Virus record (IMG/VR): IMGVR_UViG_2675903606_000013
Coordinates: 1-6,745 of that record
Reading direction: 5' to 3' (one strand)
Length of the DNA: 6,745 nt
From: a virus
Taxonomy: Duplodnaviria > Heunggongvirae > Uroviricota > Caudoviricetes
In this document: in pieces, positions 1 through 6,745 of the stretch
Position numbering within the stretch: position 1 is the first letter of the stretch
How the letters are laid out: each line of letters begins with the position of its first letter
The notes under the pieces: generated by a model
Seen by the model: only the letters and a program-made list of their open reading frames with translations
Told to the model about the DNA's origin: nothing
Databases searched by the model: none
Made by a program: the position numbers and the translations under genes

Positions 1-76
1 GGCCCTTTAGCTCAGTGGTGAGAGCGAGCGACTCATAATCGCCAGGTCGCTGGTTCAAATCCAGCAAGGGCCACCA
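1..76 (+). tRNA. ileZ: tRNA-Ile2-like (anticodon CAU; formally also readable as Met)
   Basis: Hand-folded cloverleaf with canonical numbering: perfect 7-bp acceptor stem (GGCCCTT/AAGGGCC), D-arm GCTC/GAGC, anticodon loop CT-CAT-AA, T-loop TTCAAAT, discriminator A and encoded CCA. Closely resembles E. coli ileX/ileY-type tRNA as remembered. The symbol follows the 933W ileZ-argN-argO naming and is tentative. Confidence 0.88.
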
Positions 77-83
77 TCACATA

Positions 84-157
84 CCGCCATTAGCTCATCA
101 GGAAAGAGCGCCAGCCTTCGAAGCTGGCTGCGCGGGGTTCAAGTCCCCGAAGGCGGT
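84..157 (+). tRNA. argN: tRNA-Arg (anticodon UCG)
   Basis: Cloverleaf: D-arm GCTC/GAGC, anticodon stem CCAGC/GCTGG with loop CT-TCG-AA, 5-nt variable loop, T-arm CGGGG-TTCAAGT-CCCCG. The acceptor stem has one A-A mismatch (positions 6-67) and the 3' end is TCA, not CCA. The symbol is by position in a 933W-like cluster and is tentative. Confidence 0.72.
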
Positions 158-173
158 TCATTATCTGTATCCT

Positions 174-250
174 GCGTTGTTAGCTCAGCCGGACAGGGCA
201 ATTGCCTTCTAAGCAATCGGTCACTGGTTCGAATACAGTAGAACGCGCCA
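174..250 (+). tRNA. argO: tRNA-Arg (anticodon UCU)
   Basis: Cloverleaf: D-arm GCTC/GGGC, anticodon stem ATTGC/GCAAT with loop CT-TCT-AA, T-loop TTCGAAT, discriminator G and encoded CCA. One mismatch each in the acceptor stem (G-G) and the T-stem (G-A). The symbol is tentative. Confidence 0.72.
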
Positions 251-265
251 CACTTATTTTCCCTG

Positions 266-289
266 GCTCGCTTTTGCGGGCTTTTTTTT
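266..289 (+). terminator. Intrinsic terminator downstream of the tRNA cluster
   Basis: Hairpin GGCTCGC-tttt-GCGGGC (6 bp including one G-U pair) directly followed by T8 (282-289). Confidence 0.75.
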
Positions 290-500
290 AAATGTCTCAC
301 AATTCAGGCGGTTGACTGTTGTCTGGTTTGCGGGGAGTTTGTTAAAAGAAACTGGCATGGTGAATCCCCCTGTGCGGAGGGGCAATCAGCAACTGGTGTT
401 TTGTCACCGACCCTTATCCTTTCTGTGCGGGTTCAGGTGCTGATACTGAACTCACCGGGAGGCACCCGGCACCATGCAATGGCACATAGCGCCACTCTCC

Positions 501-527
501 AGCCCCTCTCCGGAGGGGCTTTCTTAT
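501..527 (+). terminator. Intrinsic terminator (+ strand)
   Basis: Perfect 8-bp hairpin AGCCCCTC-tccg-GAGGGGCT followed by TTCTTAT. Confidence 0.65.
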
Positions 528-531
528 GGAC

Positions 532-560
532 AAAAAAAGCCCGCGCAGGGAGACGCGGGC
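532..560 (-). terminator. Intrinsic terminator oriented for leftward transcription
   Basis: 7-bp GC-rich stem GCCCGCG/CGCGGGC with an 8-nt loop. The A7 run at 532-538 on + becomes a U7 tail on the minus-strand transcript. It faces the + terminator at 501-527. Confidence 0.6.
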
Positions 561-753
561 GGCAAGGAATAAACAACAAAACGTGAAGTAATATTTCAGC
601 TGGCGAATAATATCCGACAGTAATCACTCTGCGCAATAGCGCGGCCTTTTTCGTATTGCGGGCTGTTGTCTCTCTTCTGCCATTGTCCTGTAACTTCCGG
701 ACTTCAGCCCGCTCCTCATTTTACTCACAATATTATCCAGGCCGGGAGGATTC

Positions 754-2715
754 ATGGCATTTAAACACTATGACGTGGTCAGGGCGGCGTCGCCGTCAGA
801 CCTTGCGGAGCGACTGACACAAAAACTGAAGGAGGGGTGGCAGCCATTTGGCAGTCCGGTGGCCATCACGCCTTATACCCTGATGCAGGCCATTGCGGCG
901 GAAGGTGATGTCACCACACCTGTGGTGGTGAAGCCGTCGGATGGAGAAGGCGCAGTTATCAGCACCACCAGCAACCCGGAGTATTACTTTGTTGTTGCCC
1001 TGGCCGGGCAGTCAAACGGTATGGCGTATGGTGAAGGGCTTCCGCTGCCGGAGACATATGACCGTCCGGACCCGCGTATTAAACAGCTGGCGCGTCGCAG
1101 CACTGTCACGCCGGGTGGTGCGTCCTGTAACTACAATGACATTATTCCTGCGGACCACTGCCTGCATGATGTTCAGGATTTGAGTAAGTTTTCACACCCG
1201 AAAGCCAGCGCAGCTCAGTATGGATGCGTGGGGCAGGGATTACATATCGCGAAGAAATTGTTGCCGTTTATTCCGGCGAATGCCGGTATTCTTCTGGTTC
1301 CGTGCTGCCGTGGTGGTTCTGCATTTTTGGCGGGCGATGAAGGTACCTTCAGCGAATCCACCGGCGCAAGCGAGACCTCGGCACGCTGGGGTGTAGATAA
1401 GCCACTGTACAAGGACCTGCTTACCCGTACTCAGGCCGCACTGAAGGCTAACCCTAAAAATATTCTGCTTGCAGTGGTCTGGATGCAGGGCGAGTTTGAT
1501 TTGAAACAGGGTGCATACGCCACTCAGCCGGGGCTGTTTGATTCCATGGTGGAAAAATATCGTTCTGACCTGTCGGAATTCGGAGGTCAGTGTCTCGGGG
1601 GCTCTCCGTCATCGGTTCCCTGGATTTGTGGCGACACGACCTACTACTGGAAGCAGACTTATTCTTCGCAATACGATGCGGTGTATGGTGCATACAAGAC
1701 GAAATCCGCAAAAAAAATCTTCTTTGTGCCGTTTATGACGGATGAAAACGGGCGAAATGTGGGTACCAACGAGCCGTCAGAAGATCCGGATGTTGCGGAT
1801 ATTGGGTATTACGGAGCCGGTGGTCGAACGGACGCCAAAACCTGGACGACGGCCGACCGTAAAACGCATTTTGGATCATGGGCACGTCGTGGGATTATTT
1901 CCGACCGTCTGGCAACGGCGATTCTTGTGCATGCCGGGAGAACCGCTGAATTCATTACCGGAAAACAGCCTGATACGGTGAAGCCCACCGGACCTTCCGG
2001 TGAAGGTACGGAGAGAGAGCCGGAAGCCCCGGTCAGTAACCGAACCCTGATGAGTCTGCTGGCGTCCGGCGAAGACCTGGCATCACAGGGCTGGCGCTAT
2101 TATCACAAACCGGCGAGCGGAGACAATGTTAACAAAAACATTGCTGAAGCGGTGGTCAGTGATGCGGGGGCTACGGGAGGTAAGGCCCTGCAACTGAATA
2201 AACCGGAAAACCACATCTGGTTTCTGGAGCATGATGCAGCCGGACAGGGAGTGGAGTTACTGAAGAAGGGGGGACGTGTGAGCGTACGGTTTAAGTTGCC
2301 GGGTTCACTGGTGCCGAATCGGTTTGCCCTGGGCATTTACTGGCAGTTGTCGTCCCTGCCGGAGGGAGTGACGCTGGCAGAGGAAGGCAACGACATGCTG
2401 ATGTCCTTCTTCCTGCAGACGGATGCGACGAACCTGAACGCGATGTACCACAAGAAGCCGAATGCGAAGCTGGATACGTTCGGGGTCTTTGATAACGGAT
2501 GGCACACACTGGCTTTTGAGTTTGCCGGAAACAACAGCATTCAGGTGACGCCGGTACTGGATGAGAAACGGGGGACGCCGTTCACACTGGTGAAATCTCC
2601 GGCATCAGGGGCGGCGGACAAACTGCAACTGACAGGCATATCAAAGGCGGCGACATATACGCTGCTGATTGACAGTGTGAAGGTGGAAGTGAACAACGCG
2701 GATGCCGCGGCATGA
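754..2715 (+). CDS. nanS-p: Prophage sialate O-acetylesterase, NanS-p type (N-terminal DUF1737-like region, SGNH/DUF303 esterase domain, C-terminal lectin-like domain)
   Basis: 653-aa ORF with SD GGGAGGA 6 nt upstream of the ATG. The block YYFVVALAGQSNGMAYGEGLPLP...PRIKQLARR matches the GQSN catalytic-serine block of E. coli NanS/YjhS as remembered. Length and position (after the tRNAs, before the lysis genes) match the large esterase ORF of Stx-type phages. Confidence 0.9.
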   Translation: MAFKHYDVVRAASPSDLAERLTQKLKEGWQPFGSPVAITPYTLMQAIAAEGDVTTPVVVKPSDGEGAVISTTSNPEYYFVVALAGQSNGMAYGEGLPLPETYDRPDPRIKQLARRSTVTPGGASCNYNDIIPADHCLHDVQDLSKFSHPKASAAQYGCVGQGLHIAKKLLPFIPANAGILLVPCCRGGSAFLAGDEGTFSESTGASETSARWGVDKPLYKDLLTRTQAALKANPKNILLAVVWMQGEFDLKQGAYATQPGLFDSMVEKYRSDLSEFGGQCLGGSPSSVPWICGDTTYYWKQTYSSQYDAVYGAYKTKSAKKIFFVPFMTDENGRNVGTNEPSEDPDVADIGYYGAGGRTDAKTWTTADRKTHFGSWARRGIISDRLATAILVHAGRTAEFITGKQPDTVKPTGPSGEGTEREPEAPVSNRTLMSLLASGEDLASQGWRYYHKPASGDNVNKNIAEAVVSDAGATGGKALQLNKPENHIWFLEHDAAGQGVELLKKGGRVSVRFKLPGSLVPNRFALGIYWQLSSLPEGVTLAEEGNDMLMSFFLQTDATNLNAMYHKKPNAKLDTFGVFDNGWHTLAFEFAGNNSIQVTPVLDEKRGTPFTLVKSPASGAADKLQLTGISKAATYTLLIDSVKVEVNNADAAA

Positions 2716-2716
2716 T

Positions 2717-2753
2717 AAAAAAAGCCGCCAGCGGCAGGAACGGAAGCTGGCGG
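2717..2753 (-). terminator. Intrinsic terminator oriented for leftward transcription, abutting the nanS-p stop codon
   Basis: 8-bp stem CCGCCAGC/GCTGGCGG (2725-2732 with 2746-2753) and a 13-nt loop. The A7 run at 2717-2723 gives a U7 tail on the minus strand only; the + strand side has no U-tract. Confidence 0.6.
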
Positions 2754-2850
2754 AGGTAATCCCAATGGAGAATGTAAAGAAAAGATGCTTTCGTATATCG
2801 GTTTTTTAAATGAAAACAGTTCTCATTGTCAACCATAACGGTAAGAAACT

Positions 2851-3033
2851 ATGACATTTATTCATCAGGTGATGCTGTACTTCTGTACGGCGGTCTGTGT
2901 GCTGTATCTTCTTTCGGGTGGGTACAGGGCAGTGCGCGATTTCTGGCGCAGGCAGATTGATAAAAGGGCCGCAGAGAAAATCAGTGCCAGTCAGTCAGCC
3001 GGAACAAAACCCGAAGAGCCTCTCATTCCGTAG
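2851..3033 (+). CDS. Hypothetical small membrane protein (60 aa; N-terminal TM segment, basic C-terminus)
   Basis: ORF with a weak RBS. Hydrophobic stretch VMLYFCTAVCVLYLL followed by a charged tail. No family recognised. Confidence 0.35.
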   Translation: MTFIHQVMLYFCTAVCVLYLLSGGYRAVRDFWRRQIDKRAAEKISASQSAGTKPEEPLIP

Positions 3034-3070
3034 CAACTTTCTTAACAACACCTTTCAACGAGAAAATACC

Positions 3071-3340
3071 ATGTCAGAAATAAAATCGCTGGTCACTGCT
3101 GAAGCAGTGAAGGAAGTCCTGCGCTCTGAAGAAGTCAGAAGCGCACTGAAACAGCAACTTCGGCAGAACCTTGAGGCGCGTCTTGATGCAGAAGTGGATG
3201 CCATTCTGGATGAACTGCTGGGCGCACCGACTGTTCCGGAGCCGGAAGGCATTGCGGATGACAGTGCTGTTTCAGATGGCGTCGGGTCTCAGCCTGATGG
3301 TAGCAGTGAGCCTCAGCCTGACGGCGAAATGATGATGTAA
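3071..3340 (+). CDS. Hypothetical acidic protein (90 aa from the internal ATG; helical N-terminus, D/E/P-rich tail)
   Basis: Uses the internal ATG at 3071 of track ORF 2897..3340, with a weak GAGA SD 7 nt upstream. The 5' extension from 2897 overlaps the previous ORF out of frame and looks non-coding. No family recognised. Confidence 0.45.
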   Translation: MSEIKSLVTAEAVKEVLRSEEVRSALKQQLRQNLEARLDAEVDAILDELLGAPTVPEPEGIADDSAVSDGVGSQPDGSSEPQPDGEMMM

Positions 3341-3415
3341 CCATGCGCAGGGGCTGTCGGTGTGAGCTGATGCCCCTCTTGTTGTTGTGAGCTTCCGGAT
3401 TGCGGGAGACGGGGT

Positions 3416-3631
3416 ATGTACCAGATGGAAAAAATCACAACAGGTGTGTCATACACCACGTCAGCGGTGGGAACGGGCTACTGGTTCCTGCAGTTGCTGG
3501 ACAGGGTTTCCCCGTCTCAGTGGGCGGCAATAGGTGTGCTGGGAAGTCTGCTGTTTGGCCTGCTGACGTATCTGACAAACCTTTATTTCAAGATTAAAGA
3601 AGATAAGCGTAAGGCGGCGCGGGGAGAGTAA
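3416..3631 (+). CDS. S: Class II holin, phage 21 S-type pinholin (71 aa), dual-start motif Met1/Met4
   Basis: The translation ([64 protein letters not shown]) closely matches the S21 pinholin as remembered, with two TM segments and a basic C-terminus. SD GGAGA about 7 nt upstream. Lies immediately upstream of a SAR endolysin. Confidence 0.88.
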
Positions 3632-3635
3632 AGCG

Positions 3636-3968
3636 ATGAAGAAAAAATACGAACTGGTTGTTAAAGGGATAAATAATTACCCGGATAAGATTACTGTTAC
3701 TGTGGCACTGGAAATTGGTGGGTATCCGTCACTGTTGTTGCCAGATGTGGCGATTAGTCTTGACCGTACTGAAGGTGCCACGCTGGAGTTTTACGAAGCT
3801 GAGGCGAAAAAGCAGGCGAAGCAGTTTTTCATGGATGTTGCTGCCGGGTTATGTGAAGGGGATGGTCCGTTGCCGGAAAAGCGGCCCATCATTTTAGAGG
3901 CGCAGGATGTGTTGATAATCTACAGAGGAAAACTACCGGGAATAATTACTGGTTCTCTGAAGACTTAA
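3636..3968 (+). CDS. Hypothetical protein (110 aa) inserted between holin and endolysin; no TM segment or signal peptide
   Basis: Strong SD GGGAGAG 7 nt upstream; the start is 4 nt after the holin stop. Soluble-looking sequence. It sits where some E. coli prophages carry a ydfR/DUF1327-type gene, but membership cannot be verified from memory. Confidence 0.65.
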   Translation: MKKKYELVVKGINNYPDKITVTVALEIGGYPSLLLPDVAISLDRTEGATLEFYEAEAKKQAKQFFMDVAAGLCEGDGPLPEKRPIILEAQDVLIIYRGKLPGIITGSLKT

Positions 3969-4010
3969 CATATCCAGGGATTTGAAATCGATAAACCCTG
4001 ATAAATATCC

Positions 4011-4544
4011 ATGAACACCAAAATCAAATACGGCCTGTCGGCTGCCGTTCTGGCGCTGATTGCCGCAGGTGCGCCTGCGCCTGAAATCCTCGACCAGTTT
4101 CTGGATGAAAAGGAAGGTAACCACACCACGGCATACCGTGATGGCGCGGGTATCTGGACCATCTGTCGCGGTGCCATTCTGGTGGATAGTAAACCTGTCG
4201 TCCCGGGCATGAAGTTGTCGAAGGAAAAATGCGACCAGGTTAACGCCATTGAACGTGATAAGGCGCTGGCATGGGTGGAGAAAAACATCAGAGTGCCACT
4301 GACCGAACCCCAGAAAGCGGGGATCGCGTCATTCTGTCCGTACAACATTGGTCCCGGTAAGTGTTTCCCGTCGACGTTTTATAAACGAATTAATGCAGGT
4401 GATCGAAAAGGTGCCTGCGAAGCGATTCGCTGGTGGATTAAGGACGGTGGCAGAGACTGCCGTATTCGCTCAAACAACTGTTACGGTCAGGTATCCCGTC
4501 GCGACCAGGAGAGTGCGCTGGCGTGCTGGGGAATTGACAGATAA
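4011..4544 (+). CDS. R: SAR endolysin, T4-lysozyme-like (GH24) phage lysozyme R, 177 aa
   Basis: N-terminal Gly/Ala-rich signal-anchor-release segment YGLSAAVLALIAAGAPAP. Catalytic triad spacing E35-x8-D44-x5-T50 within EGNHTTAYRDGAGIWT. The size and sequence match the Stx-phage/phage-21 R family as remembered. Confidence 0.92.
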   Translation: MNTKIKYGLSAAVLALIAAGAPAPEILDQFLDEKEGNHTTAYRDGAGIWTICRGAILVDSKPVVPGMKLSKEKCDQVNAIERDKALAWVEKNIRVPLTEPQKAGIASFCPYNIGPGKCFPSTFYKRINAGDRKGACEAIRWWIKDGGRDCRIRSNNCYGQVSRRDQESALACWGIDR

Positions 4545-4633
4545 GCAGAATATTTTGCTGAAAAATAAGGCGTGGCCACGCGGGCGGATAACACGAAATC
4601 CTGCGAACTGGCGAAACGTAAGTGAATAAAAGT

Positions 4634-4677
4634 AAAAACCCCGTTTGTTGGCACCAAGCGGGGGTTTGTGTTTCTGA
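4634..4677 (+). terminator. Intrinsic terminator-like hairpin downstream of R
   Basis: A-run, stem CCCCG/CGGGG (extendable with A-U pairs), a 15-nt loop, then TTTGTGTTTCT. Confidence 0.5.
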
Positions 4678-4700
4678 CCTTGAGTAAGGCAAGGGAGAAC

Positions 4701-4883
4701 ATGGCGAAGTATAAACGAATTCTGTTGAGGTTGACCATGAAAAACGGCCTTGAACTGAAAGCGCCTGTAACTGATGACATCAGCAGAGCACTGGCTTTTG
4801 CCATTAAGTGGGTGGCGGTCGGTGTTGCTGTGTCCCCGATGCTGTATGGGCTGGCAAAACTGGTCATTGCGTTGAAATCGTGA
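4701..4883 (+). CDS. Hypothetical small membrane protein (60 aa; basic N-terminus, C-terminal TM segment)
   Basis: ATG at 4701 preceded by AAGGGAGA (short spacing). C-terminal hydrophobic segment [22 protein letters not shown]. The track ORF begins at a GTG inside the terminator hairpin, which is judged unlikely to be the start. Confidence 0.45.
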
Positions 4884-4897
4884 AGGGAGGATTAAGC

Positions 4898-5029
4898 ATG
4901 TCAGACAAACTCATAACGCTGGCGAAGATCCTCTGTGTAATTGTCGGCATTTCATTTTCACTAATGCTGGTTGCTCTTTTTCTTTCCATGGCCTGGATGA
5001 TGTTGTCTTCGTCGGGGCTGCTGGGGTGA
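4898..5029 (+). CDS. Hypothetical 43-aa hydrophobic peptide (single TM segment)
   Basis: ATG at 4898 with a strong SD AAGGGAGGA 7 nt upstream that overlaps the stop of the previous ORF. Translation [43 protein letters not shown]. Its stop TGA (5027-5029) overlaps the GTG at 5026 at the head of the Rz ORF. Confidence 0.45.
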
Positions 5030-5526
5030 ACATAAACCGAATGCTTTCCGCGTTTATCGTTATTCTGCTGGTGGCCTGTGGTGCGCTGTGGATGGCAACA
5101 GACCATTACCGTGATAACGCGATTACCTACAAAGCGCAGCGCGATAACAAAGCCAGTGAACTGAAGCTGGCGAACGCAACCATTACTGATATGCAGGTGC
5201 GCCAGCGCGATGTTGCTGCGCTCGATGCAAAATACTCGAGGGAATTAGCCGATGCGAGAGCTGAAAATGAAACTCTTCGCGCTGACGTTGCCGCTGGTCG
5301 TAAGCGCCTGCGGATCAACGCCACCTGTCCAGGCTCCGTGCGTGAAGCCCCCACCACCTCCGGCGTGGATAATGCAACCGGCCCCCGACTGGCAGACACC
5401 GCTGAACGGGATTATTTCATCCTCAGAGAACGGTTGATGACAATGCAGAAGCAGCTGGAAGGGGCGCAGGAATATATCCGCACTCAGTGCACTAAGCTGG
5501 CTTTTTATTATCCGGAGGATATATGA
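5026..5526 (+). CDS. Rz: Rz inner-membrane spanin (i-spanin)
   Basis: N-terminal TM segment ([16 protein letters not shown]) followed by [14 protein letters not shown]...[19 protein letters not shown]...[11 protein letters not shown], closely matching lambda Rz as remembered. Start is either the GTG at 5026 (coupled to the upstream peptide) or the ATG at 5041. Confidence 0.9.
5252..5437 (+). CDS. Rz1: Rz1 outer-membrane lipoprotein spanin (o-spanin), embedded in the +1 frame of Rz
   Basis: Lipobox LVVSAC, then the Pro-rich core [26 protein letters not shown], matching lambda Rz1 as remembered. The ORF lies entirely inside Rz. An alternative start is the ATG at 5267. Confidence 0.85.
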
Positions 5527-5747
5527 AGAAATTACTGGTAACCGTAAAGCCTTTTCAGGGAACAATTCTGTTCCGTATTTTGCAGCGTGGTCGTGTTCTT
5601 GTTGAAGGTTCGTTCAGTGGTAAATGTACGCAATTACACTCCCGGACCTTTCAGGTGAATGCCACGAATGAAGAGCTAACCGTGGAGTGTACGATGAATG
5701 CCGCTAAATGCCGCATGGTATCCGCTGCATTACAGCCAGTGTGTTGA
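5523..5747 (+). CDS. Hypothetical protein (74 aa, four Cys), translationally coupled to Rz
   Basis: ATGA overlap with the Rz stop (ATG 5523-5525, TGA 5524-5526). SD GGAGG 5 nt upstream. No signal peptide and no recognised family. Confidence 0.6.
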
Positions 5748-6022
5748 GCGACCTTATTATCCATGCGCGGTATTGTCGCCGTATTCCCGCATTAACAGAG
5801 ACCGCAGCCCGACCGGGAGACTCCTCTTCGCGAGTGTGCGGGGATAATCAAAAACGATACACACCGGGGTTTACCGCGTTAACGGAGCGCGGCGTTGCCC
5901 CTCATAGTCGCCTGTCCGGTGCGATGGTGGAAGAAGCCGGACGATGTGTTACCTCGCAAGCCCTGTTATGTGTCTGATTTGTGATTTAAGTCGGATAATT
6001 GTCGTTGCCATCAAGCAGAGGA

Positions 6023-6065
6023 TTGATGACCGACAGGGTGGCATTGTTAGAATAAGACTTATTCT
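6023..6065 (+). promoter_or_regulatory. Promoter-like element with an overlapping perfect palindrome, upstream of the TonB-C lipoprotein gene
   Basis: TTGATG at 6023-6028 and TAGAAT at 6048-6053 (a long 19-bp spacer). A perfect 8-1-8 inverted repeat AGAATAAG-A-CTTATTCT at 6049-6065 overlaps the -10 region. Confidence 0.4.
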
Positions 6066-6079
6066 TATCTGTGCCGGGA

Positions 6080-6412
6080 ATGAAAATGAAAAGAAATCTT
6101 CCGTTAATTATTTTGTTGTCTTCTCTGGTTATGGGCTGTACGCAACATAAAACAGATATGCCCCGACAGTTGGTGAAGGCATTACCACAATATCCGGCCT
6201 ATGCAGCGGCAAATTATATAAAGGGACGGGTTGATGTGAAGTTTGATATTGGTGCTGATGGTACTGTCACCCGAATTGAGTTTATCCGTTCAGAGCCGCA
6301 CCATCTGTTTGATGAGCAGGTTGTAAAGGCGATGGCAAAATGGCGATTTGAGAAGGACAGGCCGCGTAAAGGCGTGAAGAAAACGTTTATCTTTAGTCCT
6401 TCTGCACCCTGA
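6080..6412 (+). CDS. Lipoprotein consisting of a stand-alone TonB C-terminal domain
   Basis: Signal peptide MKMKRNLPLIILLSSLVMGC with lipobox and Thr at +2. The mature part (LPQYPAYAAANYIKGRVDVKFDIGADGTVTRIEFIRSEPHHLFDEQVVKAMAKWRFEKD...) aligns along its length with the E. coli TonB C-terminal domain as remembered, including the QYP motif. There is no Pro-rich spacer and no N-terminal TM anchor. Alternative starts are the GTG at 6071 and the ATG at 6086. Confidence 0.8.
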   Translation: MKMKRNLPLIILLSSLVMGCTQHKTDMPRQLVKALPQYPAYAAANYIKGRVDVKFDIGADGTVTRIEFIRSEPHHLFDEQVVKAMAKWRFEKDRPRKGVKKTFIFSPSAP

Positions 6413-6543
6413 TTATTTCATCAGAAATTAATTATCACTCTGTTGTTATTCTGTACATCCCGGCTGGGTAAGTCTTGTTCCGCCGGGTATGAAGATGAAA
6501 TATTGTTGGAGGACAGTGGGTACCTGCTCCTGTAACCGAACGT

Positions 6544-6744
6544 TCATTTCTCGTTATTTGTCATGCTGGCCGTACGCAGATGCGTTGCATCTGTTGCCAG
6601 CCTTCTCCTGCAGGCTTCAATAACCCACGCTGAAAAGTTACCGGAACCTTTATGTTCAAGGGCGATGTTGATCTGTTCAATCATGTGATTGGGGAAACGG
6701 ATATTGCGGGTTGTGGTTCTGCGGGTCCGGTTTTTCGATGACAT
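6544..6744 (-). CDS. Small ribbon-helix-helix-like DNA-binding protein (possibly YlcI/YnfO-type); 5' end may lie beyond the window
   Basis: Minus-strand ORF of 66 aa from the first in-window Met. The segment NIRFPNHMIEQINIALEHKGSGNFSAWVIEACRRRL has a strand-helix-loop-helix pattern typical of RHH proteins. Its position before the expected terminase genes matches small prophage ORFs of the YlcI/YnfO type, but this is from memory only. Confidence 0.55.
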   Translation of the reverse strand: MSSKNRTRRTTTRNIRFPNHMIEQINIALEHKGSGNFSAWVIEACRRRLATDATHLRTASMTNNEK

Positions 6745-6745
6745 A

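Follow-up and report, generated by a model that had tools for sequence, protein, structure and literature searches.

What could a TonB C-terminal domain do in a lysogen when it is cut off from the machinery that energises TonB and fitted with a lipoprotein signal instead? The question is raised by a 6,745-nucleotide stretch of DNA (positions 1 to 6,745 of IMG/VR virus record IMGVR_UViG_2675903606_000013), referred to throughout as the window. The window comes from the late region of a lambdoid, Shiga toxin (Stx)-phage-like Escherichia coli prophage and carries near its right end a gene for a protein here termed the TonB_C lipoprotein. An original prediction, made from the letters of the DNA, had proposed that this protein is a decoy for the TonB box. 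Siderophores, vitamin B12, many phages, group B colicins and siderophore-antibiotic conjugates all enter through TonB-dependent transporters, the gate at which a decoy would act. From the architecture and fold of the protein, the selection on its gene, the spread of its family and the transcription of a sister allele, we infer that it is lipidated, lies at the outer membrane, binds TonB boxes and competes with TonB, thereby excluding some of what would otherwise enter. Such a lipid-anchored TonB C-domain, damping TonB-dependent entry into the lysogen, is the reading proposed here, at a probability of about 0.42; the evidence as to inhibition or assistance of uptake is mixed.

Architecture and fold of the lipoprotein

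The greater part of the protein is a TonB C-terminal domain (CTD). In profile searches it matched Pfam PF03544 (TonB_C) at E=5.5e-15, with 56 bits against a cut-off of 24.6, and TIGR01352 at E=2.6e-15, with 56.5 bits against 27.1. The E. coli TonB CTD structures 1u07, 2gsk and 2grx matched at E ~1e-16 over 79-81 residues, as did the Salmonella TonB CTD. An AlphaFold2 model, built from a 20-sequence alignment, reached a predicted local distance difference test score (pLDDT) of 96-98 throughout the domain, with elements in the order E-H-E-E-H-E, and shows the TonB CTD fold, in which a sheet of three strands packs on two helices. When the model was compared with the PDB by Foldseek, the top 16 matches were all CTDs of TonB, FusB or TonB2. 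The closest was 2gsk_B, TonB as bound to BtuB, with a root-mean-square deviation (rmsd) of 1.0 Å over 79 columns and a target-normalised TM-score of 0.92; over the E. coli TonB CTD entries (1u07, 1xx3 and the complexes 2gsk with BtuB and 2grx with FhuA) the rmsd was 1.0-1.4 Å and the target-normalised TM-score 0.88-0.92. The stand-alone TonB C-domain of the original prediction is thus confirmed by profile and by structure.

Identity to the E. coli TonB CTD is 37-42%, with the YP motif and an aromatic/glycine core in common. TonB numbering is obtained by adding 127 to that of the 108-residue protein, so that the mature protein corresponds to TonB 145-235. The Q-Y-P motif that had been claimed lies within a conserved P-Q-Y-P, the equivalent of P161-Q162-Y163-P164, and the equivalents of F180, G186, F202, W213 and F230 are also kept, with a conservative change of Y215 to Phe. 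Other positions have changed: the equivalent of Q160, which we take to be genetically tied to the TonB box, is Leu in the window protein and Tyr in the allele of phage 21, and that of R166, which presumably contacts the FhuA plug, is Tyr both here and in 11 of 13 members of the lipoprotein family. In place of the A-x-P-A-N-M-F-E of TonB stands S-E-P-x-H-L-F-D, which, together with the Tyr at the R166 position and a Ser at the A196 position, forms a signature of the family. The protein ends with S-P-S-A-P at the equivalent of TonB-235, five residues past that of F230; it takes in about that portion of TonB which is ordered in the chain of the BtuB complex (81 residues) and is missing most of the C-terminal tail. 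In free TonB this tail runs along the same beta-3 edge to which a TonB box would be added, and its absence could therefore leave that site open.

As the original prediction had stated, the N-terminal transmembrane anchor and the Pro-rich spacer of TonB have no counterpart, and a lipoprotein signal peptide, here read as cleavable, stands in their place. A stretch of just nine residues leads from Cys18 to the domain. The N-terminus reads MKRNLPLIILLSSLVMG up to the predicted cleavage site, followed by Cys18 and by Thr19 at position +2, and a PROSITE-type lipobox pattern is satisfied, which bears out the signal peptide (LVMGC, Thr at +2) that had been read from the sequence. In the family alignment the lipobox Cys is invariant (13 of 13 members), as it is in the genome loci that have a complete reading frame, and the +2 residue is Ser, Thr, Ala or Val in the relatives, with no Asp in any of those examined. 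The lipobox predicts that the window protein is lipidated, and by the established +2 rule for Lol-dependent sorting of lipoproteins the Thr predicts delivery to the outer membrane. The signal peptide and tether are modelled at low confidence (pLDDT 57-84 for residues 11-30). NCBIfam equivalog models of TonB (PRK10819) gave 50-73 bits against cut-offs of 265-448 and matched at profile positions ~152-240 only; the window protein is a TonB_C-domain protein that fails every test for being a TonB.

The reading frame at 6071-6412, to which the original prediction had pointed, is real and lies on the plus strand, but its start has moved. The longest form begins with a GTG at 6071; the ATG at 6086 is favoured because the RefSeq annotation (WP_000828070), the family alignment and a Shine-Dalgarno-like GGGA 7 nt upstream agree on it. 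The phage 21 allele has an equivalent Shine-Dalgarno, AGGA, in place.

Spread, selection and transcription

Two alleles of the gene, both annotated 'TonB family protein', are widespread in E. coli. Of 5426 complete genomes, 415 have the window type, O157:H7 among them, and 1225, including UTI89, the phage 21 type, whose protein is 71% identical. Counts were made allele by allele and the two sets of genomes may overlap; roughly a quarter to a third of E. coli genomes carry the gene. Between the two alleles the Nei-Gojobori ratio of nonsynonymous to synonymous substitution rates (dN/dS) is 0.13, at dS ~1.4, so that the gene is under purifying selection and maintained, and a decaying fragment is ruled out. 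Several database copies of the phage 21 type (P0012, P0013, P0015, P0018, P0019 and P0021) have a frameshift shortly ahead of the last beta strand or inside it, so that the predicted edge for TonB-box binding is replaced; either decay of prophage copies or errors of assembly could account for this.

Beyond E. coli, an exhaustive HMMER search recovered short full-length relatives of 107-133 aa at 34-49% identity, nearly all with a lipobox, and a scan of one genome per species with a 6-sequence alignment added further relatives in Raoultella, Klebsiella, Serratia, Erwinia, Pantoea and Pseudescherichia. The family thus occurs across the Enterobacterales, in prophages, in chromosomes and on one plasmid. 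Its domains share a mean identity of 47% with each other as against 39% with the CTDs of enterobacterial TonB proteins, and this distance, together with the family's own signature, indicates that the gene is not a recent truncation of a host tonB.

Where phages carry the gene, it is found between the Rz/spanin genes and the terminase, and this single slot recurs in backbones that differ in holin, endolysin and terminase; in phage 21 the gene adjoins bor. Its left boundary in the window can be placed precisely. When the window is compared with phage 21, the conserved lambdoid non-coding element upstream (Table 1) shows higher conservation than the TonB_C gene does, and the ~400 phage records that match it do so in this part only. 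Because homology to phages that lack the gene ends exactly at 5942, the gene and ~140 bp of DNA upstream of it make up an inserted cassette with that position as its left edge. At the 3' end of the element, a short open reading frame (ORF) start (MVEE..) is shared with the phage 21 gene CPT_21_72.

Relatives outside phages have other neighbours. In Serratia they lie beside ORFs that resemble dsbB, nhaB and fadR (named by eye), in Raoultella and Klebsiella near a LacI-type regulator, and there are chromosomal relatives in Erwinia as well. The plasmid relative, P0062, is encoded at 5348-5737 of a metagenomic plasmid-like contig (L012), just after partition genes of the parM/stbB type. On that contig, KAP NTPase, QatB and TatD-type genes, resembling a Qat defence system, lie a few kb away.

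The phage records with the phage 21-type allele, namely phage 21 itself (L032, OL657228 21967-25416), Perceval, ev017, PhiR47_2, PhiR57_1 and PhiR63_2, all carry sitABCD. This iron/manganese importer does not need TonB. Since most phages with sit are without the TonB_C gene (~19 of 27 records), the co-carriage in the phage 21 lineage is treated as shared ancestry, which it probably is.

Transcription has been recorded for the sister allele. In E. coli LF82 the gene LF82_160 of prophage Perceval, a phage 21-type allele labelled 'TonB fragment', was expressed 8-fold over the prophage background in an RNA sequencing study (PMC9928086). Its level was alike in lysogeny broth (LB), in Dulbecco's modified Eagle's medium (DMEM) and in macrophages, with a log2 fold change of 0.26 that was not significant and log2 values of ~5-6.6 in fragments per kilobase per million (fpkm). 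Its neighbours (holin, endolysin, Rz and terminase) were silent or at background in the same lysogen (PMC9928086). Expression of LF82_160 amid silent late genes indicates that at least the phage 21-type allele has its own promoter. The TonB_C gene is probably a prophage accessory gene, or 'moron', whose autonomous transcription in the lysogen is known for the 71%-identical sister allele.

For the window allele the case is less direct. The original prediction had given the gene a promoter-like element of its own with an operator-like palindrome, which would fit expression in the lysogen. The perfect palindrome is real, but the one candidate sigma-70 promoter in the window is weak, and promoter-like sites in the region are not above chance (2 found against 1.9 expected from shuffled sequence). 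The phage 21 allele has no more of this candidate promoter than TGTyAGAATAAGAC, and in it the -35 and the right arm of the palindrome are absent. Expression in the lysogen holds for the sister allele, whereas the window allele offers only this weak promoter-like site. Downstream of the gene, no significant terminator structure was found (z = -1.0).

Upstream of the relatives there is a further pattern, seen at the level of matches to a 19-bp Fur-box consensus. Strong matches (14-17 of 19 positions) lie within 120 nt upstream of the gene in 13 of 21 related loci (L007, L010, L017-L022, L024, L026 and L028-L030), 9-46 nt before the start codon. The best, 17/19, is in Serratia grimesii; matches of 16/19 are found in another Serratia, in Erwinia typographi and in a Klebsiella, those of 15/19 in four Raoultella loci and one metagenomic chromosomal locus, and several more loci reach 14/19. 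Many come as pairs offset by 6 nt, as would be expected where Fur hexamers repeat, and in 216 kb of related loci strong matches are rare other than upstream of the TonB_C lipoprotein gene. In the window a match stands where the relatives have their strong boxes but is weak (13/19; Table 1), and the phage 21 allele has nothing comparable (10/19). From these sequences the family looks ancestrally iron-regulated, with Fur control weakened or lost in the E. coli prophage copies. Fur-like AT-rich sites (15/19) were also seen at L001 6042-6066, L003 8601-8625 and L033 ~1700-1730, where they lie in the vicinity of cos or precede the small terminase gene. Such sites in lambdoid phages are probably packaging-site elements and not Fur sites; owing to this position, the matches in phage 21, L003 and L033 are not read as regulators of the TonB_C gene.

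Competition with TonB and the rival explanations

As a competitor of TonB, the protein would be exported and its signal peptide cut before Cys18, with the Cys lipidated. The tether, of about nine residues, would then hold a complete TonB C-domain beneath the TonB-dependent transporters at the outer membrane, where the fold suggests that it could bind exposed TonB boxes as TonB does, by strand addition to the beta-3 edge. Its targets would be ligand-loaded transporters and incoming group B colicins. With no ExbB/ExbD anchor and no Pro-rich rod, the protein should deliver no energy, and binding would thus be competition with TonB. At the moderate level of native expression, TonB-dependent entry would probably be damped or gated, not abolished, and the benefit selected in the lysogen would be that fewer TonB-dependent phages and colicins enter. 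A fixed, modest dose of decoy might cover the few transporters of iron-replete cells, blocking phages and colicins, and might be outnumbered once Fur derepression floods the membrane with transporters.

The decoy idea is plausible, with an experimental precedent in an over-produced periplasmic TonB domain. According to PMC9841981, which cites Howard et al. 2001 (J Bacteriol 183:5885), such a domain inhibits iron import via TonB-dependent transporters; the same paper, citing Tuckman and Osburne 1992, reports that a TonB-box pentapeptide lowers colicin killing and phi80 infection. The engineered, dominant-negative fragments likewise place a TonB C-domain in the periplasm uncoupled from ExbB/ExbD. 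They are artificial, soluble and over-expressed, whereas the window protein is natural, is predicted to be lipid-tethered at the outer membrane and, judging from the sister allele, is moderately expressed.

Several points weigh against competition. The strong Fur boxes of most relatives outside E. coli suggest induction under iron limitation, when a block of TonB would be costly; these relatives would be expected at the very time at which cells rely on TonB-dependent uptake. Among the 415 and 1225 genomes of the two alleles are strains such as UTI89, LF82 and O157:H7, pathogens that depend on TonB-dependent siderophore uptake and in which the gene is common. A blanket shut-off is hard to square with the Fur control of the relatives and with the presence of the gene in pathogens that depend on siderophores. 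Under iron starvation transporters can, by our reckoning, far outnumber such a protein, whose level in LF82 is just moderate (log2 fpkm ~5-6.6; PMC9928086). The equivalents of TonB Q160 and R166 are replaced, and the domain would carry its lipid anchor N-terminally, at the end that in TonB points to the inner membrane. A PADLOC search gave no match to a known defence family.

The same Fur boxes suggest an explanation in which the protein is no inhibitor. It might be an envelope factor of the Fur regulon for iron limitation, carried by phages, like sitABCD, to raise fitness in iron-poor niches; in variants of this idea it would assist or stabilise transporters, by covering TonB boxes that are exposed or by arranging the transporters in the outer membrane, or its fold would bind peptidoglycan, the TonB CTD or another periplasmic strand. 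Taken together with its variants, this explanation is the main rival, less likely than not but with a good deal in its favour: the strength of the Fur matches (14-17/19 in 13 of 21 loci), their position 9-46 nt before the start, their frequent pairing 6 nt apart and their scarcity elsewhere in the 216 kb, the ordinary chromosomal contexts of many relatives (Serratia, Raoultella, Klebsiella, Erwinia), sitABCD in all phage records of the phage 21 type, and the frequency of the gene in pathogens that need siderophore uptake. Yet a domain without a link to ExbB/ExbD cannot energise transport, and to our knowledge no positive role for a free TonB CTD has been described. The prophage alleles of E. 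coli, moreover, have a weak Fur box (13/19) or none (10/19), the sit association is lineage-bound, with ~19 of 27 sit-carrying records lacking the gene, and the LF82 allele was not induced in DMEM or macrophages (log2 fold change 0.26, not significant; PMC9928086). Superinfection exclusion of the kind exerted by Llp of T5 or Cor of phi80 and N15, in which one receptor such as FhuA is inactivated and only its phages are excluded, is improbable. These proteins, too, are small outer-membrane lipoproteins of phages that silence FhuA at the periplasmic face of a TonB-dependent transporter, and the window protein, predicted to lie in the same membrane, belongs to a temperate phage and to a family expressed in the lysogen; Llp binds the periplasmic face of FhuA, and binding of TonB occludes the Llp site. 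An exclusion phenotype like theirs is accordingly possible for the window protein, and to that extent, at most, the precedent invoked in the original prediction stands. The fold, however, is not shared: that of the window protein is TonB_C, Llp was absent from the PDB matches, and BFVD yielded neither Llp nor any other viral protein as a structural match at E <= 0.001, whereas the fold of Llp is its own and has many relatives in BFVD. Llp acts allosterically on one receptor, while TonB_C would recognise a motif common to all TonB-dependent transporters, so that single-receptor specificity is not expected; the genes of Llp and Cor lie by tail genes, the window gene follows the lysis cassette and is not beside tail or receptor-binding genes; and there are chromosomal relatives with Fur boxes outside phages.

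Two older labels imply explanations of their own, both very unlikely. PHROG 1267 is labelled 'Rz-like spanin'; the whole protein (window 6080-6412) matches phrog_1267 at E=1.9e-42, and a lipoprotein gene that follows shortly after the lysis cassette on the same strand would suit a lysis accessory. But a complete Rz (5026-5526) with an embedded Rz1 (5252-5437) is already there, and a globular TonB_C domain is neither a short Pro-rich o-spanin nor a u-spanin with a C-terminal transmembrane segment. Holin, endolysin and Rz are silent in the LF82 lysogen, in which the sister allele is transcribed (PMC9928086), and there are chromosomal and plasmid-borne homologues that have no lysis genes in their vicinity. 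Almost certainly, phrog_1267 is the TonB_C lipoprotein family and its label a misannotation, one that looks as if carried over from the position beside the lysis genes. The names 'TonB fragment' and 'partial tonB-like membrane protein' in older annotations suggest instead a non-functional remnant of a captured tonB, as do the frameshifts near the 3' end of some phage 21-type database copies. This view is effectively refuted by the data on selection and conservation: dN/dS is 0.13, the acquired lipobox is kept among relatives of 34-49% identity, the sister allele is transcribed on its own, and a domain just ~39% identical to enterobacterial TonB CTDs is no recent truncation.

Competition with TonB could also be combined with the iron pattern. 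On a broader and rather speculative view, which we consider unlikely as a whole, the Enterobacterales would have a family of Fur-controlled TonB-box binders at the outer membrane that gate transporters, and lambdoid phages would repeatedly have captured the gene, loosened its iron control and turned it into wide protection from TonB-dependent phages and group B colicins. Were this so, roughly one in four to one in three E. coli genomes would contain an exclusion mechanism distinct from Llp and Cor. A competitor of TonB would in any event be the first protein of that kind known, would show how cells and prophages tune that gate, and could explain differences between strains in their sensitivity to phages, colicins and 'Trojan horse' drugs. 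If the protein is instead a helper of iron uptake, it would add a new accessory part to a system with decades of study behind it. In both cases the labels 'TonB fragment' and 'Rz-like spanin' need correcting, for a gene that pathogenic E. coli (O157:H7, UTI89, LF82) very commonly carry.

Among phage genes the closest parallel in position is the Bor/Iss moron of lambda-like phages, which occupies the same slot between Rz and cos/terminase. Bor is an outer-membrane lipoprotein, as is predicted for the window protein, and is likewise expressed from the prophage (PMC9928086). Unlike the TonB_C gene, bor is encoded on the other strand and its expression rises strongly in DMEM and macrophages, and the two proteins have no kinship of sequence or fold. 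Neither the TonB_C gene nor its domain is new: annotations of the gene go back to the first O157 genomes, and the phage 21 record has it under the name 'TonB C-terminal domain protein'. A search of the full-text literature, whose coverage excludes most subscription journals and hence is no proof of absence, found no functional study; the sole mention was that of the expressed 'TonB fragment' moron in LF82 (PMC9928086). What is added here is the lipoprotein family across the Enterobacterales, the purifying selection, the cassette boundary, the Fur-box pattern and the correction of two misleading labels. The protein combines a domain already known with an architecture not characterised before and with a role that is probably new.

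Layout of the window

DNA nearly identical to the window is found in E. coli chromosomes, where genes for an HNH endonuclease, the terminase and head proteins come next. The features located in the window are listed in Table 1.

Table 1. Features located in the window (positions in nucleotides; nt, nucleotides; aa, amino acids)
Feature	Position	Strand	Remarks
Three tRNA genes	1-250		anticodons CAT, TCG and TCT; the CAT one is tRNA-Ile in RefSeq
STnc100 small RNA family match	326-531		full length, 143 bits, E=1.3e-32
Sialate esterase gene	754-2715		653 aa; DUF1737, SASA sialate O-acetylesterase domain and DUF6645
Phage 21-type holin	3416-3631
YdfR/DUF1327 gene	3636-3968
Lysozyme	4011-4544
Rz	5026-5526		complete; Rz1 embedded at 5252-5437
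74-aa ORF	5523-5747		4-bp overlap with the end of Rz
Conserved lambdoid non-coding element	5748..5942	+	~74-96% identity in ~400 lambdoid phage records, including lambda relatives
Candidate sigma-70 promoter	6026..6053	+	ATGACC-16-TAGAAT, extended -10 TG; weak; only candidate in the window
Perfect 7-1-7 palindrome	6050-6064		GAATAAGaCTTATTC (GAATAAG-a-CTTATTC); overlaps the -10 and the predicted start site
Weak Fur-box match	6051-6069		13/19; overlaps the palindrome; shuffle p ~0.02-0.05
Shine-Dalgarno-like GGGAA	6075..6079	+	GGGA core 7 nt before ATG 6086
TonB_C lipoprotein coding sequence	6086..6412	+	108 aa and stop at 6410-6412; start as in RefSeq (WP_000828070, 'TonB family protein') and family alignment
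Predicted lipoprotein signal peptide	6086..6139	+	MKR n-region, hydrophobic core, lipobox L-V-M-G-C; Cys18 codon 6137-6139
Tether TQHKTDMPR	6140..6166	+	~9 residues from the predicted lipidated Cys to the folded domain
TonB C-terminal domain	6155..6397	+	equivalent to E. coli TonB residues ~151-231
YlcI/YnfO gene	6544-6744	-

Between Rz and the TonB_C gene lies the 74-aa ORF, which matches phrog_2571, a family of 291 positions annotated as of unknown function, at positions 100-172 only and may be a truncated remnant. A conserved partner gene was sought in this interval and rejected, the 74-aa ORFs of the window and of L013 being mutually unrelated. At the other end of the window, tRNA genes followed by STnc100 form the arrangement found upstream of stx in Stx phages, and here the interval from the tRNAs to the esterase holds no toxin genes. 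The esterase itself is presumably of the NanS-p type, which we take to be typical of Stx prophages.

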